Source: Escherichia coli
GTDB taxonomy: Bacteria > Pseudomonadota > Gammaproteobacteria > Enterobacterales > Enterobacteriaceae
NCBI RefSeq assembly: GCF_003334255.1
Contig: NZ_QOWU01000103.1
Direction: 5' to 3' (one strand)
DNA: 5,793 nucleotides
The notes below the pieces were generated by a model. That model saw nothing but the letters and a program-made list of their open reading frames with translations. It was not told the DNA's origin and made no database searches. Each line of letters opens with the position of its first letter. Position 1 is the stretch's first letter. Both the position numbers and the translations under genes were made by a program. Positions 1,277 through 5,793 of this stretch are shown here, one piece after another.

Positions 1277-2362
1277 ATGGCAAGCTACCATTGTACAGTT
1301 AAAACTGGAGCAAAAGGCGTAGCCTTAAAACATGCTGATTATATTTCTAGATCCGGCGAATATAAGAACTACAAATCGCGGGAGGATCTGGAATTTTCGT
1401 CATCCGGTAACATGCCATCATGGGCGAAGAAAAATCCCGCAGAGCTATGGAAAGCAGCAGATGAATTTGAACGAAAAAACGGGACGGCATACCGTGAAAT
1501 TGAGATCGCATTACCGCGAGAACTGACACGCGAACAACGGATAGAACTTGTTGAAGATTTCGTGCAAAAGGAGCTTGGTGATCGCCATGCCTATCAGTAC
1601 GCGATCCACAATCCGCCAGGTGCAATCGACGGAAAGGAACAACCACACGCACATATCATGTTTTGCGAGCGGATTAATGATGGTATTGAACGCGATCCGC
1701 AGCAGTTTTTTAAACGTGCCAACAGCAAATCACCGGAGCGGGGAGGTGCAAAAAAGGCACGCTTTGGTGAGACACCACAAGAGCGAAAATCAGCCTTGGT
1801 TGCGCTACGTTCTCACTGGGCTGATGTGCAGAATGAACACCTTGCGCGGCACGGCCATCAGTCGCGCGTTGATCATCGTTCACTGAAAGAACAGGGTATC
1901 AAGCGCACACCGGAAGTTCATCTTGGTCCCGTTCGTGTTGCTGTTATGAATGCTGATCAGGTTTGTGCAATTCTGGCACGGAGAAACGCGGAACGGGAGA
2001 AGCTAGAAGCAGAGCAGGAACGGGACAGCATCATTGACCTTAAAACGACCTTGAAGGAAGCGTTAGCTGAACGGGATAACATACCACCAAGCCTGGATGA
2101 GCTTGGGGCAGAATTGAAGGCGTTTGTTGAAAGCTCGTTTGATGAACTCAATGAGGTAATGCAGCTTAATTCATTGATTAACGGTGCGCTGGACTCAATG
2201 ATGAAGCAATTCCAGGTGGAAGAGGAGCGGAAGTTGCAACAGGAACGACTAATTGAAGCCGAAAAGCAAAGAGACCTGGAGAGGGAAAGAGAAAGAGTGC
2301 GCCAGCGTGCGTATTCCTCACCAGCACCATCACGTTCACGTGATTATGGTATGAGCCGTTAA
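1277..2362 (+). CDS. mobA: MOBQ-family relaxase (MobA/MobL-type), 361 aa
   Basis: The N-terminus MASYHCTVKTGAKGVALKHADYISRSGEY parallels RSF1010 MobA (MAIYHLTAKTGSR...AKADYIQREGKY), so the predicted catalytic Tyr is Y22. The histidine triad region is HNPPGAIDGKEQPHAHIMF. The C-terminus is a charged coiled coil. SD ggaggg at 1260-1265. Confidence 0.93.
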   Translation: MASYHCTVKTGAKGVALKHADYISRSGEYKNYKSREDLEFSSSGNMPSWAKKNPAELWKAADEFERKNGTAYREIEIALPRELTREQRIELVEDFVQKELGDRHAYQYAIHNPPGAIDGKEQPHAHIMFCERINDGIERDPQQFFKRANSKSPERGGAKKARFGETPQERKSALVALRSHWADVQNEHLARHGHQSRVDHRSLKEQGIKRTPEVHLGPVRVAVMNADQVCAILARRNAEREKLEAEQERDSIIDLKTTLKEALAERDNIPPSLDELGAELKAFVESSFDELNEVMQLNSLINGALDSMMKQFQVEEERKLQQERLIEAEKQRDLERERERVRQRAYSSPAPSRSRDYGMSR

Positions 2363-2382
2363 GCACTGGAGGTTTTTATTTT

Positions 2383-3099
2383 ATGCAATTGGATGAACAT
2401 TCAAGAAAAATTGCTGCTCTTGTTGCGTATAATGATAAACAAATAAAAGAAATGAACAGGCTAATTACTCTGCTTAATGAAAGAGTGAATGACTTAAATA
2501 CCTTTACAAGTACTCTTGAACGTGAAGGTAAAGTTGTTTCTGGAATTTCTTATTCCTTTAGGGATAGTGTGTCTAATGTTAAATTTTATATTAATAAAGG
2601 AATGGATGAGGCATCTTGTAAATTACAGAAATCAGTCTCAGATACACTAACGTCATTACTCCGCGAAAAATTATCTTTCACTCTCAATGATGTAAAGAAA
2701 GAGTGGGTTGATTTCGAGGAGCAAACAAGTAAAGAGATAAAGGAATCATTAAAGCAGACGACCAGAGAGGCCGAAGTTGCGACAGGTATAATTAGAAAAA
2801 CAATGGAGAAGTATACAGTAACAAGGATTGTCGAAAAGGTAATTGTGTTGATTGTATTATTTTTATTGCTAATGATCGCTCCTGTTTTCTATGCTGAATA
2901 TCTCAAAATGAATATTAGTTCGCTAATGGAAGAACAGAAAAAACATGAATCCATGTTAAAAGAATGGAAAGAAAAAGCTCCATTGGCCGAGTTCTCGAAG
3001 TGTGGAGATTATCGTAAAGCATGCGTGTTAGTTGATGACGAAAGCGGATATTATTTTAATGAACAATCACCAAATAAAAAATATGCCATACTGAAATAG
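2383..3099 (+). CDS. Hypothetical coiled-coil, single-pass membrane protein, 238 aa
   Basis: GGAGG (2368-2372) lies 10 nt before the ATG and 20 nt after the mobA stop. About 150 aa are heptad-rich and charged. One hydrophobic helix, VIVLIVLFLLLMIAPVFY, spans aa 153-170. The 68-aa tail has Cys207 and Cys214. The gene is AT-rich like the rest of the cargo. I recognise no family. Confidence 0.75.
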   Translation: MQLDEHSRKIAALVAYNDKQIKEMNRLITLLNERVNDLNTFTSTLEREGKVVSGISYSFRDSVSNVKFYINKGMDEASCKLQKSVSDTLTSLLREKLSFTLNDVKKEWVDFEEQTSKEIKESLKQTTREAEVATGIIRKTMEKYTVTRIVEKVIVLIVLFLLLMIAPVFYAEYLKMNISSLMEEQKKHESMLKEWKEKAPLAEFSKCGDYRKACVLVDDESGYYFNEQSPNKKYAILK

Positions 3100-3108
3100 T
3101 GTTAAGTA

Positions 3109-3142
3109 ACTCATGCCGTCTTATGACTAAGGCTGCATGAGT
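3109..3142. terminator. Hairpin between convergent genes, a possible bidirectional terminator
   Basis: actcatgc(3109-3116)/gcatgagt(3135-3142) plus an inner stem gtctta/taaggc (one G-U pair) with loop tgac. There is no clear U-tract on either strand. Confidence 0.35.
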
Positions 3143-3156
3143 ATAAAAACGGCGTT

Positions 3157-3729
3157 TCACGTAAAAATAAAATAAATACCTGTACCTAATATAAAAATGG
3201 AACTACATATGCTTATGTATCTTGAGAATGATGGCGTCAATTTATCCCTTATCGTTAAGCTAATAGCTATGTAAATAAGATCTGTTAGGAATGATATAAA
3301 TATAAATAAAACACCCAATATAAAAAAGTTTAATGTGATATTTGTATTATTATCTATAAAGGTTGGTATTAACGCAGCAAAGAAAAGATACGCCTTGGGG
3401 TTTAATAATGGTATCAAAAAAGGTTTTTGCTCTTTTCTTTGTTTGTTTTTTTTATTAATTAAACCCATTAATCCTATGTATATTAAATAGCCTCCACCGA
3501 ATATTTTTATAATGTGAAAATGTTGTTCTGTGCTGGATGTTGAGGATAACGCGAAAAGAGATATTGCCATGACGATAGTCTCGCCAATTCTTATGTATAT
3601 ACTTGTTTTTATTGATGACTTTAATCCATGTAAAAAGGCATTGTTTATAACCAATGCAACGCCAGGCCCTATTGATATAGTTTGCGATAAGGTTACGATA
3701 GCAAATGATAATAATGTTGAATATTCCAT
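3157..3729 (-). CDS. LysE/RhtB-family amino-acid (derivative) exporter, 190 aa
   Basis: Family hallmarks can be read directly: N-terminal ...SQTISIGPGVALVINNA (PGP-type motif), KIFGGGYLIYIGLMGL, and LLNPKAYLFFAALIPTFID. About six hydrophobic segments. The start lies 6 nt after the upstream gene's stop. Confidence 0.88.
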   Translation of the reverse strand: MEYSTLLSFAIVTLSQTISIGPGVALVINNAFLHGLKSSIKTSIYIRIGETIVMAISLFALSSTSSTEQHFHIIKIFGGGYLIYIGLMGLINKKNKQRKEQKPFLIPLLNPKAYLFFAALIPTFIDNNTNITLNFFILGVLFIFISFLTDLIYIAISLTIRDKLTPSFSRYISICSSIFILGTGIYFIFT

Positions 3730-3735
3730 GTTTAC

Positions 3736-4686
3736 TTACCATGATATATTTCGTGGGAGCTTTTCATATACATATTCCATAGGAATTGCAGCTTTCGGTA
3801 ATAAATTTATAAATGTTGATATGTGTTTTAGTGAATTGCTGGCGGCGATTGAGTAAAAATTTCCGCTATTCCAATATATTGATGCGTATTTAAAATGTTG
3901 TTTAATTGCGGAAAGCATATCGTCAACACTAACTTCATTCAAATTCATTGTGTTTAGTACGATTTCCTTTTTGGTGTTAATCTCATCTTTCGAGAAATAC
4001 CTTTGTTTGAATGAATAATCTTTTTGGATTTCTCTTTTTTGATATTCATCATGTTCTGAACTATGTTTTTCTGTAAATATGAAAATACCATCATTATTTA
4101 ATAGCCTTTTTACGTGGTTTATTTGCCCAGATCTGTTAGGTGGGTACATTTGAAATGTGGTGTCTTCTATTATAATATCGAATCCTTGATTAAATTGTTT
4201 AAGATTTGAATTTTTTAGTCTTTCCTCTAACAGGAAAAATGGAGTGCAAATAAAATAAGCGTTTTCACTTGAGCCATACTTAAAAAATGCATGTTCATTT
4301 TCTTTTGTTGGACTGGTTGTTAATGTTTGTATGTTTCCTTTTGATAATTCTGAAATGGTTCTTGCCATTGCGCCCTCAGCCATACCAAGACACCATGTGT
4401 TTAATTTTTTGTTTAGCGTGATTGCGTATTTTATTACTGTTGTTCCTAATCTGCACTCTTCTTCCTTGCTGTATGGTATACTGCAAAAATAATGATTAAC
4501 GAAAGGGCCGCTGTTTTTTGTGAGGTGTTTGGCAAACTTAATGTAATCATAAGAATGAAAAAGCCGATCATCTATTTCTACTAGTCTAAAAGGTTTGTGT
4601 TTTTCCCCTGATGCAGTTGATGAGAAAAATTCTGCCATGCCGTTTATTCTCGGAGCGGAAATACATTCATTTATAAAATTATTCAT
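3736..4686 (-). CDS. Divergent class I SAM-dependent methyltransferase-fold protein, CmoA (carboxy-SAM synthase)-like, 316 aa
   Basis: SD agagga lies 7 nt before the ATG. WCLGMAEGAMA aligns to CmoA motif I YDLGCSLGAAT, and IQTLTTSP aligns to IIAIDNSP. FDIIIEDTTFQMY...LLNNDGIFIFTEK aligns to ...LNPGGALVLSEK. The C-terminal FSKDEINTKKEIVLNTM...SVDD...NSGNFYSIAA aligns to CmoA YSELEISQKRSMLENVM...SVET...QCFNFGSLVA. The CmoA sequence was recalled from memory. Confidence 0.8.
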   Translation of the reverse strand: MNNFINECISAPRINGMAEFFSSTASGEKHKPFRLVEIDDRLFHSYDYIKFAKHLTKNSGPFVNHYFCSIPYSKEEECRLGTTVIKYAITLNKKLNTWCLGMAEGAMARTISELSKGNIQTLTTSPTKENEHAFFKYGSSENAYFICTPFFLLEERLKNSNLKQFNQGFDIIIEDTTFQMYPPNRSGQINHVKRLLNNDGIFIFTEKHSSEHDEYQKREIQKDYSFKQRYFSKDEINTKKEIVLNTMNLNEVSVDDMLSAIKQHFKYASIYWNSGNFYSIAASNSLKHISTFINLLPKAAIPMEYVYEKLPRNISW

Positions 4687-4787
4687 TTTCCTATCCTCTG
4701 GTTTGATTTTTGGAATTTGTTGTTATGACTCTTCAATGCTAATTCTCTTGTAAGCTTTTTTACACGCCATAAACACGATTATGATGT

Positions 4788-4814
4788 TTTATATTGTCGA
4801 TATTTCGTTGTCCA
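4788..4814 (-). promoter_or_regulatory. Candidate promoter of the CmoA-like/LysE operon
   Basis: The minus strand reads TGGACA (4814-4809), 15-nt spacer, TATAAA (4793-4788). The alternative is a 17-nt spacer to TAAAAC. The spacing is suboptimal, and the leader would be about 100 nt. Confidence 0.25.
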
Positions 4815-4937
4815 GACTGGATATGTTTGGAAATTTGTTTTCATGCGGGTTAGTTCAGCTGGCTTTCTGGATGAGAAAGTTTGCTGTTTTGACCAGTTCG
4901 CGCTTCTGAAGGGGTGAAACCGATCATTAATCGCTTT

Positions 4938-4955
4938 TGTGCATAGTTATGCAGG
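4938..4955 (+). promoter_or_regulatory. ARG-box-like palindrome, a putative ArgR accessory site of the cer-like locus
   Basis: tgTGCATAgtTATGCAgg is a perfect 6-bp palindrome. It resembles the ColE1 cer box TTGCATAGGTATTCATA (recalled) and lies 102 bp upstream of the XerC arm. Confidence 0.45.
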
Positions 4956-5055
4956 CCCCTAAAAACGATTCTGACGCGTTTTTTGTGTTTTCCCTAGGTT
5001 TATCTTGTCTTTTTGAGTTTTTTGCGTCAGAAAGCGATTGAGAGCGTTTTAGAGG

Positions 5056-5083
5056 GTACGTACAAGAGGAGTTATGGTAAATG
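5056..5083 (+). other. cer-like Xer recombination core site (XerC arm, 6-bp central region, XerD arm)
   Basis: GGTACGTACAA-gaggag-TTATGGTAAAT compares with ColE1 cer GGTGCGTACAA-TTAAGGGA-TTATGGTAAAT. The XerD arm is identical and the XerC arm matches 10/11. The preceding gcgttttag also matches the cer flank as recalled. Confidence 0.78.
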
Positions 5084-5103
5084 GGTCTGGTTTTCGGGAA
5101 GGA

Positions 5104-5132
5104 TCGACAGGATTTGCCGTTGGGTGTAGTGT
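5104..5132 (+). promoter_or_regulatory. Candidate rep promoter
   Basis: TCGACA (5104-5109), 17-nt spacer, TAGTGT (5127-5132). This gives a structured leader of about 100 nt before the rep ATG at 5239. Confidence 0.4.
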
Positions 5133-5140
5133 AACCAACT

Positions 5141-5262
5141 GAAAAACAAACGCCCCTGAAATTCGTGCCGATCCGCCAAGACTGTCACGAAAATTCAAGG
5201 GGCGTGTGGGTCGTAACACACGGAGGAAATCCTAACACATGAGCGCCGTACTTCAACTCTTC
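5141..5262 (-). ncRNA. Antisense copy-number control RNA (ColE2 RNA I-like); the 5' end is approximate
   Basis: The minus strand carries a long hairpin (5206-5150, GC-rich base acgcccct/aggggcgt, 19-nt apical loop) followed by uuuguuuuu (5149-5141), a canonical intrinsic terminator. Candidate promoter TTCGTA (5297-5292), 17-nt spacer, TAATTT (5274-5269). The predicted length of about 120 nt is compatible with the reported RNA I of about 115 nt. Confidence 0.5.
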
Positions 5263-5793
5263 AGGGAAAAATTACCGCACAAACCGTACTGTACGAACGA
5301 TTTCACGTACGGCGTTCGCATTCTACCGAAAGATATCGCCATCCTTGCCCGTTTCATCCAGCAGAACCAGCCACATGCGCAGCACTGGCTGGCCTTTGAC
5401 GTTGACCGGACGGGGGCAGCGATCGACTGGAGCGACCGGAACTGTCCGGCCCCGAACATCACCGTAAAAAATCCACGTAACGGGCACGCGCATCTGCTCT
5501 ACGCGCTCACTCTTCCGGTGAGAACCGCGCCGGATGCATCGGCTTCGGCGCTCAAATACGCTGCCGTGATTGAGCGTGCGCTGTGTGAAAAACTGGGCGC
5601 GGATGTGAACTACAGCGGCCTGATCTGCAAAAATCCGTTCCACCAGGAATGGCAGGTGGTGGAATGGCGTCGGGAACTCTATACCCTCGACGAACTGGCG
5701 GATTATCTTGATTTGAGCGCCTCAGCGCGCCGTCGCGTCGATAAAGATTACGGGATGGGGCGAAACTGGTATCTGTTCGAAAAGGGCCGTAAA
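5239..5793 (+). CDS. rep: ColE2-type replication initiator/primase Rep, N-terminal part (185 codons, open to the window end, continues at base 78 via the junction)
   Basis: My translation has no stop codon: MSAVLQLFREKLPHKPYCTNDFTYGVRILPKDIAILARFIQQNQPHAQHWLAFDVDRTGAAIDW...NGHAHLLYAL... It contains a primase-type acidic DVD motif and a GHAHLLY motif, and matches my memory of the ColE2/ColE3 Rep N-terminus. Confidence 0.92.
   Translation, partial: MSAVLQLFREKLPHKPYCTNDFTYGVRILPKDIAILARFIQQNQPHAQHWLAFDVDRTGAAIDWSDRNCPAPNITVKNPRNGHAHLLYALTLPVRTAPDASASALKYAAVIERALCEKLGADVNYSGLICKNPFHQEWQVVEWRRELYTLDELADYLDLSASARRRVDKDYGMGRNWYLFEKGRK
5717..5793. repeat. Second copy of the terminal redundancy (identical to 1-77)
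   Basis: Exact 77/77 identity to the window start. Confidence 0.95.

Follow-up and report, generated by a model that had tools for sequence, protein, structure and literature searches.

A CmoA-like protein on a small mobilizable plasmid of Escherichia coli belongs to an unstudied enzyme family in the methyltransferase fold that has lost three acidic S-adenosylmethionine contacts

The stretch of Escherichia coli DNA analysed here (the window, 5,793 bases, from contig NZ_QOWU01000103.1) carries a gene for a protein resembling CmoA, the carboxy-S-adenosylmethionine synthase. Judged by alignment and predicted structure, this protein belongs to a widespread and unstudied family of plasmid-borne enzymes built on the methyltransferase fold, in which all three acidic residues that contact S-adenosylmethionine (SAM) in CmoA have been replaced. 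We tentatively read it as an active enzyme that, together with a co-transcribed exporter, forms a two-gene make-and-export cassette, carried as cargo of a mobilizable plasmid and yielding an amine derived from SAM; we would put the chances of this reading somewhat short of even. The stand-alone family, as yet unstudied, probably makes a secreted small molecule. Conservation counts below refer to family alignments of 37 and of 129 members.

The predicted structure of the CmoA-like protein showed a seven-stranded, Rossmann-like class I methyltransferase fold, with 591 matches to methyltransferase-type entries of the Protein Data Bank (PDB) at E <= 1e-3. CmoA was the nearest solved structure, and the cap insertion of the CmoA-type fold was present. 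The best NCBIfam and PHROG matches of the open reading frame (ORF) also pointed toward CmoA, although the sequence identity between the two proteins is only 13–16%. Comparison of the 37-member family alignment with E. coli CmoA in hhalign reached 88% probability and was consistent with phmmer alignments to PDB entries 4gek, 4iwn, and 1im8. By this alignment, Cys99, Ala103, Thr123, and Thr124 of the window protein are equivalent to Asp62, Ser66, Asp89, and Asn90 of CmoA, and Pro149, Asp175, Lys240, and Tyr72 to Asp117, Asn132, Arg199, and Tyr39, respectively. In CmoA, Asp117 contacts the adenine, Ser66, Asp89, and Asn90 contact the ribose, and Tyr39, Asp62, and Asn132 contact the methionine part of the cofactor (PMC3663124). 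The side-chain contacts to adenosine were thus all replaced, family-wide, and the equivalents of the methionine-end contacts (Y72, G101, D175) were kept or more polar.

Specifically, Asp or Glu was found at positions 99, 123, and 149 in none of the 37 members and likewise in none of the 129. Position 99 was T, S, C, or V in all members, and position 123 was S, T, N, C, or A in the larger alignment, at the site where class I methyltransferases have their most conserved SAM contact, the acid at the end of strand 2. Across the alignments, the loss of these acids is a property of the family, neither chance nor a single mutation. The Gly-rich loop of motif I (nucleotides 4363-4395 translate to WCLGMAEGAMA) was retained: G101 was invariant, and the loop had the form GxxxG as in CmoA, or, in a second subfamily, LGTGTG or LGAGAG, the canonical GxGxG. 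Compensation for the lost strand 2 acid by Glu104, considered from its covariation with Asn123, was rejected, as 25 of the 129 sequences had neither residue (TLGTGTG with LCCSP).

These results bear on the original prediction, which was made from the sequence by eye and had read motif I as CLGMAEGA, with Cys where CmoA has Asp, and the ribose-binding acid as Thr within IQTLTTSP. The ORF, both peptides, and the C-terminal string were all confirmed as stated. Both hhalign and phmmer placed the same residues in the same columns, so that the by-eye alignment was not offset and the canonical acids are absent; a class I fold, which might have been lacking altogether, was present. The third lost acid, Asp117 replaced by Pro149, had been missed. 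The terminal segments without CmoA counterpart, put at about 35 amino acids (aa) at the N-terminus and about 30 at the C-terminus, were measured at 36 and 32 aa, the latter counted from the end of the last shared strand, and 94 residues precede strand 1 in the CmoA-like ORF versus 58 in CmoA. Relative to CmoA, the window protein also has about 15 additional aa inserted at residues 151-168, not mentioned previously, with a helix at 150-158 in the predicted model. Both extensions and the insertion were modelled at a predicted local distance difference test score (pLDDT) above 90. In the N-terminal extension R13, F20, F21, T24, A25, G27, and P32 were at least 97% conserved among the 129 members, and in the C-terminal extension P302 and Y307 were at least 90% conserved.

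Approximately 50 positions were at least 97% conserved across the 129 members, which share 37–55% identity, and these clustered at the C-terminal ends of strands 4 and 5 (EDTTFQM; K207), in the cap helices, and in the last hairpin (WNSGNF). EDTTFQM, at the usual catalytic corner, did not vary among the 37 members and reached at least 97% conservation in the larger alignment. Two E. coli plasmid variants differed by 31 synonymous and 13 non-synonymous changes, giving a ratio of non-synonymous to synonymous substitution rates (dN/dS) of 0.09, and none of the 13 substitutions fell at a conserved position. Because so many positions at the active-site end are conserved at this level and dN/dS is so low, a dead, decaying, or purely structural protein is unlikely. 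As a separate observation, the window protein has Pro182 (4141-4143, MYPPNR) at a site that is Ser in the family consensus and in two related E. coli plasmid variants (MYSPNR), a lineage-specific change shortly after the invariant EDTTFQM.

An exhaustive profile search also brought up the domain, as a sister clade, within giant proteins of 1,800–5,600 aa. One of these had ART-PolyVal and LPD22 domains (Pfam), which are characteristic of the polyvalent proteins found in phages and conjugative elements; such proteins are proposed to pass into the recipient along with the DNA and to oppose host defences (PMC5512222). The sister-clade domain seemingly goes undescribed in the 2017 polyvalent-protein survey. 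The giant proteins had been candidates for polyketide synthase or nonribosomal peptide synthetase (NRPS) megasynthases, an identity that was rejected when Pfam gave polyvalent-protein domains instead. The window protein is itself a single 316-aa domain, not a multidomain polyvalent protein. Sister-clade sequences kept the acids, with motif I as (L/Y)DIG(A/G)SEG and the end of strand 2 as (D/E)P, and some matched generic methyltransferase models of Pfam. The special motifs of the family recurred in the sister clade, in the forms FF..V..G, FDxHIxxSIP, E(S/A)MxFQF, EEKF, NE..KD...K, K...VL.GM, and WxSGNF. Because the canonical acids persist in a sister clade whose catalytic motifs are the same, the comparison argues that the ancestor of the family used SAM; by the same motifs, the catalytic apparatus predates the loss of the acids, which argues that the stand-alone clade altered how, or whether, the nucleoside is held.

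The family-wide loss of canonical cofactor contacts could also befit a non-catalytic, ligand-binding protein or pseudoenzyme. We consider this very unlikely, as the strongest conservation lies at catalytic positions shared with a clade whose SAM site is intact, dN/dS is 0.09, and relatives share operons with exporters and ligases and are also found fused to adenylating enzymes. The earlier interpretation holds in part. A routine methyltransferase is indeed not indicated, and altered cofactor or substrate chemistry is supported, given the scores below the cutoffs of curated models, the replaced contacts, and the exporter context; the non-catalytic role that had been offered beside altered chemistry is not favoured, because conserved residues lie at catalytic sites, the motifs are common to the sister clade, and dN/dS is low.

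Despite the structural likeness, on profile scores and gene context the CmoA-like ORF is not a CmoA orthologue, because it lies far below the curated cutoffs, Arg199 appears unconserved, and there is no cmoB. The curated CmoA models TIGR00740 and PRK15451 matched only the C-terminal half, at 27.5 bits versus a cutoff of 193.3 and at 18.6 versus 285. Arg199 of CmoA forms a salt bridge with the carboxymethyl group and is conserved within the CmoA family (PMC3663124), whereas the equivalent position 240 was K in 17, R in 10, E in four, and Q in two of the 37 members, and N, S, T, or A in one each, with the register possibly one residue off; the neighbouring K239 was invariant. CmoA has cmoB next to it in a two-cistron operon (PMC4482062), whereas the window family is accompanied by exporters and ligases, and a CmoB-like gene was absent from the window and from about 100 related loci. 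This gene context is one of small molecules and export, not of tRNA. That the protein is nonetheless a true carboxy-SAM synthase supplying a carboxymethyl donor would fit the place of CmoA as closest solved structure and as top match in both NCBIfam and PHROG, and the Lys or Arg at position 240 in 27 of 37 members. Set against this are the low bit scores, the replacement of Asp62, Ser66, Asp89, Asn90, and Asp117, the apparently variable Arg199 equivalent, and the want of a cmoB-like partner in any locus of a family whose E. coli host already has its own cmoAB, and we regard the proposal as barely credible.

The gene context of the family centres on export. In the window, an RhtB/LysE-family exporter gene begins only 7 nucleotides beyond the stop codon of the CmoA-like gene, and the two are therefore presumably co-transcribed. 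The exporter matched the Pfam LysE model at E 2.9e-19 (69.8 bits versus a cutoff of 25.6), and its best NCBIfam matches were homoserine/threonine, leucine, and homoserine-lactone efflux families, below the equivalog cutoffs. A LysE gene also lies directly downstream of the family gene in Citrobacter, Pectobacterium, Klebsiella, Niallia, Blautia, a Streptococcus plasmid, and two Rhizobiales loci, an arrangement spanning seven genera and two phyla. More generally, a transporter (LysE, major facilitator superfamily [MFS], or EamA), adjacent or fused, was the constant partner of the relatives, many of which also had an adenylating ligase, a GNAT-family acetyltransferase, and LuxR, LuxI, or AraC. 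Among Rhizobiales loci, 69 had an EntS-like MFS gene and 68 a divergent AraC gene.

The family comprises at least 224 clusters when grouped at 90% identity, and 612 representatives when grouped at 50%. It was found in 197 species genomes, mostly of Rhizobiales, on 199 PLSDB plasmids, and in 28 of 5,426 complete E. coli genomes. Across the family, the source names were only 'hypothetical' or 'class I SAM-dependent methyltransferase', and Pfam has no model for it. Literature searches by protein accession or as CmoA-like or CmoA homolog returned nothing on the clade.

Several enzyme-LysE loci had further neighbours. In Citrobacter, a RimL/RimJ-type GNAT gene (Acetyltransf_3; locus L001, 7260-7796) lies directly upstream of the pair, echoing the rhizobial GNATs described below, which suggests N-acetylation of the product and possibly self-protection. 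About 7 kb upstream of the intact gene in the same locus, beside an integrase, a short ORF (497-790) matched the CmoA-like query and looks like a fragment of a second copy. The Blautia pair (L009, 3799-6708) adjoins an agrB/LytTR/histidine-kinase locus, the Klebsiella michiganensis pair (L101, 3519-7568) adjoins a cluster of AfsA, acyl carrier protein, and ketosynthase genes, and the Streptococcus plasmid pair (L109, 2765-6088) is divergent from a gene for a 307-aa XRE-family regulator; these neighbours may be coincidence or may reflect a wider link to cell-cell signalling.

In rhizobia, the second subfamily (349-357 aa) had a fixed gene order of LuxR, CmoA-like protein, a ligase-like protein of about 466 aa, and a GNAT, in Phyllobacterium, Sinorhizobium, Rhizobium, Ensifer, and Shinella. 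A LuxR or LuxI gene stood immediately upstream of the family gene in eight genera, and on an Agrobacterium plasmid the CmoA-like gene shares 8 nucleotides at its start with a TraI-like acyl-homoserine-lactone synthase gene. The upstream LuxRs kept all six residues that bind acyl-homoserine lactone, relative to TraR; that they are simply TraR was rejected on a score of 45.7 bits against the TraR equivalog cutoff of 250. The pairing of ligase and GNAT mirrors that of MshC and MshD in mycothiol synthesis. Fusions joined the CmoA-like domain to a class II aminoacyl-tRNA synthetase, an AMP-binding enzyme, an EamA transporter, or a nicotianamine-synthase-like domain, and adenylating ligases were tied to the family in three unrelated forms. 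In addition, two fusion proteins (P0278 and P0283) shared a domain of about 490 aa, N-terminal in one and C-terminal in the other, so that their partners are mutually related; a BshC-like ligase was considered for this partner and dismissed when its profile gave no match.

From these observations we infer SAM as the substrate, an amine on the product, and a role of the product as toxin, signal, or anti-defence by-product. The enzyme would take a primary metabolite, most likely SAM, because of the fold, the Gly-rich loop and methionine-end contacts that are retained, and a sister clade whose SAM site is intact. SAM would serve as substrate through its aminocarboxypropyl end, not as a plain methyl donor, and the nucleoside part would be released. 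Because the transporter is constant and a carboxylate-adenylating ligase and an N-acetyltransferase are frequent partners, the product would be small, with a free amine, and amino-acid- or homoserine-lactone-like. The RhtB/LysE exporter would then expel it, and in relatives the ligase would N-acylate and the GNAT acetylate the same product under LuxR, LuxI, or AraC control. A precedent for the exporter is that LysE-type transporters are an established component of gene clusters for toxic amino acids, such as AmbA in the AMB toxin cluster ambA-E (PMC4357302).

A model for making an exportable amino acid from SAM alone is provided by AzeJ and VioH, SAM cyclases with a methyltransferase fold that form azetidine-2-carboxylate (AZE) and 5'-methylthioadenosine (MTA) from SAM (PMC11794875). 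They resemble the window family in this fold and in a GxxxG loop. However, AzeJ keeps the ribose-binding Asp85, unlike the window family, AzeJ and VioH were outside the top structural neighbours of the window protein, and their motifs FY(17-18), PFNxxGN(133-139), and RxxYYxxC(172-179) (PMC11794875) were absent from the family. Membership of the AZE synthases was therefore rejected, the end of strand 4 reading EDTTFQM.

Several points weigh against the make-and-export reading. With the three acids that contact SAM all lost, it is equally conceivable that SAM is no longer bound. The closest mechanistic precedent is not a relative, because the AZE-synthase signature motifs are absent. The E. coli cassette is without ligase or GNAT, so that conclusions from the rhizobial operons may not transfer to it. 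Moreover, the association with quorum sensing may be mere co-location in plasmid cargo regions, and the exporter could instead remove a detoxified foreign compound.

A competing proposal is a SAM-dependent methyltransferase of the ordinary kind, with a small amino or keto acid as its substrate, in which SAM would be held by Ser, Thr, or Cys residues and a methylated antimetabolite or detoxified product would be exported. The class I fold, the Gly-rich loop (canonical GxGxG in the second subfamily), and a sister clade with canonical SAM motifs are in keeping with this, as are weak Methyltransf_31 (Pfam) matches in 8 of 37 members. The 3-methylarginine cluster of Pseudomonas syringae offers a parallel, with the methyltransferase gene mrsA and the LysE-type exporter gene mrsC. 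Both that cluster and the AMB toxin cluster resemble the window in combining one or more biosynthetic enzymes with a LysE-family exporter for a non-proteinogenic amino acid. Their enzymes differ, AMB relying on NRPS and oxygenases and mrsABC on a canonical methyltransferase and an aminotransferase, whereas in the window a single CmoA-like enzyme seemingly suffices. We nevertheless hold an ordinary methyltransferase to be rather unlikely: the acid at the end of strand 2 was present in 0 of 129 members and two further acids are missing, no Pfam methyltransferase model reached threshold for any of the 37 members, and no NCBIfam methyltransferase model reached its cutoff for the CmoA-like ORF.

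The sister clade within ART-PolyVal/LPD22 polyvalent proteins raises another explanation, an anti-defence SAM lyase that would form MTA and homoserine lactone and so blunt SAM-dependent restriction or bacteriophage exclusion (BREX) upon plasmid entry, with the exporter clearing the toxic lactone. Phage SAM lyases do produce MTA and homoserine lactone and counter restriction and BREX (PMC7877911; bioRxiv 10.1101/2023.02.27.530186), and the phage enzymes T3 SAMase and Svi3-3 are possible functional analogues in that SAM is split and the activity is deployed by a mobile element (PMC7877911); they have an unrelated fold, and similarity to them was found neither in sequence nor in structure. Relaxase or tra genes adjoin the family gene on many plasmids, and the NCBIfam matches of the exporter include a homoserine/homoserine-lactone efflux protein. 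Yet it is from the stand-alone clade that the SAM-binding acids are missing, its operons with AraC, MFS, ligase, and GNAT genes look biosynthetic, and some copies are chromosomal without mobile context. The Pectobacterium copy, for instance, is located between an ATP-binding cassette (ABC) transporter and gcv genes. PADLOC gave no meaningful match, and only one relative was in IMG/VR. Taken together, an anti-defence lyase appears improbable. Two further proposals were tried and rejected: a component of a defence system, for which PADLOC was marginal for the enzyme (mad2, E 0.0018) and returned nothing for the exporter, and a phage origin, for which PHROGs matched only a phage CmoA-like family, over the C-terminal half, alongside the one IMG/VR relative.

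We give an outside chance to the view that the family is a LuxI-independent source of homoserine-lactone-type compounds, with SAM cleaved or cyclised so as to free the lactone amine, or acylated and lactonised via an acyl- or aminoacyl-adenylate from the partner ligase. This view arises because LuxR or LuxI genes lie upstream, the acyl-homoserine-lactone-binding residues are kept, ligases are present, the exporter is like those for homoserine-lactone efflux, and phage SAM lyases make homoserine lactone. LuxI-type synthases, for which SAM supplies the amine of the lactone, are themselves of an unrelated, GNAT-like fold, and relatives of the window protein sit directly after a LuxR or LuxI gene. 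Under this LuxI-independent scheme, the rhizobial ligase and GNAT would complete a signal resembling an N-(acetyl-aminoacyl)-homoserine lactone, to be read by the upstream LuxR, enterobacteria and Firmicutes would export the bare product through the RhtB-type exporter, and in polyvalent proteins the same chemistry would deplete SAM.

Finally, the window is a complete circular plasmid of 5,716 bp with a wrap of 77 bases (bases 1-77 equal 5717-5793). It is 100% identical to the E. coli plasmid NZ_AP022820.1 and belongs to a set of about 30 near-identical MOBQ mobilizable plasmids from E. coli and Salmonella. The backbone consists of the rep gene and genes for a TraD-like protein and a MobA/MobL relaxase; the ORF at 39-452 is only the C-terminal part of the replication initiator, split by the ends of the window. 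The low guanine-plus-cytosine (GC) cargo island contains three genes, namely the ORF at 2383-3099 (+), the exporter gene (-), and the CmoA-like ORF (-). The first of these encodes 238 aa, is convergent with the exporter gene, has a coiled-coil look with one hydrophobic segment, and is also kept in related E. coli plasmids, where it is annotated as hypothetical; family searches with it gave weak, chance-level matches only and no assignment. A promoter scan of 3000-5100 found no more sites than in shuffled sequence and picked out no single promoter.

Table 1. Features of the window and of related loci and proteins
Feature	Position or members	Strand	Description
CmoA-like enzyme gene	3736..4686	-	316 aa + stop; class I methyltransferase fold, uncharacterised clade
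N-terminal extension, residues 1-36	4579..4686	-	Without CmoA counterpart; motif APR(I/L)N..A.FF..TA.G..G.P; pLDDT 92-95
SIPY, residues 69-72	4471..4482	-	Equivalent of CmoA S35-V-P-G-Y39; Tyr72 position Y in 33/37, F in 4/37
Motif I CLGMAEG, residues 99-105	4372..4392	-	Gly-rich loop retained; Cys replaces CmoA Asp62
Strand 2 end IQTLTTSP, residues 119-126	4309..4332	-	Thr123 and Thr124 replace ribose-binding Asp89 and Asn90
Strand 3 end TPF, residues 148-150	4237..4245	-	Pro149 replaces adenine-binding Asp117; Pro in 34/37
Insertion versus CmoA, strands 3-4, residues 151-168	4183..4236	-	~15 aa, helical; gapped in CmoA by hhalign
EDTTFQM, residues 174-180	4147..4167	-	Strand 4 end, usual catalytic corner; Thr176 = CmoA Phe133
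Cap helices after strand 5, residues 212-248	3943..4053	-	CmoA-type insertion; Y215, R218, E219, K222, D223, K227, K239, M247 conserved
WNSGNF, residues 272-277	3856..3873	-	Conserved, last hairpin
C-terminal extension, residues 285-316	3739..3834	-	32 aa without CmoA counterpart; pLDDT 93-96
RhtB/LysE-family exporter gene	3157..3729	-	190 aa; start 7 nucleotides past enzyme stop codon
Intergenic region, CmoA-like gene/rep, divergent	4687..5238		Shine-Dalgarno-like GGATAGGAAA just 5' of ATG
rep gene	5239 -> across origin -> 452		Replication initiator, 309 aa
Low-GC cargo island	~2200-5000		GC 30-35% versus ~50% in mob/rep backbone
LuxR-upstream loci	L012, L094-L099, L104, L106-L108		Rhizobial plasmids
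LuxI-overlapping locus	L105 6295-8050		Agrobacterium plasmid
Fusion proteins	P0273, P0319, P0300, P0349, P0278/P0283		CmoA-like domain + partner domain
Giant-protein relatives	P0344, P0350, P0353-P0355, P0371, P0377 + ~40 others		Profile search

The gene is thus common plasmid cargo hidden under 'hypothetical' or methyltransferase annotation. If the make-and-export reading is true, small mobilizable plasmids of gut E. coli would carry an unannotated chemical trait, whether toxin, signal, or anti-defence. The family also constitutes a natural experiment, in which a methyltransferase fold is without all three acidic SAM contacts and its catalytic corner is intact. In plant-associated bacteria, where its genes are closely tied in operons to LuxR and LuxI, a new signalling chemistry is a possibility.

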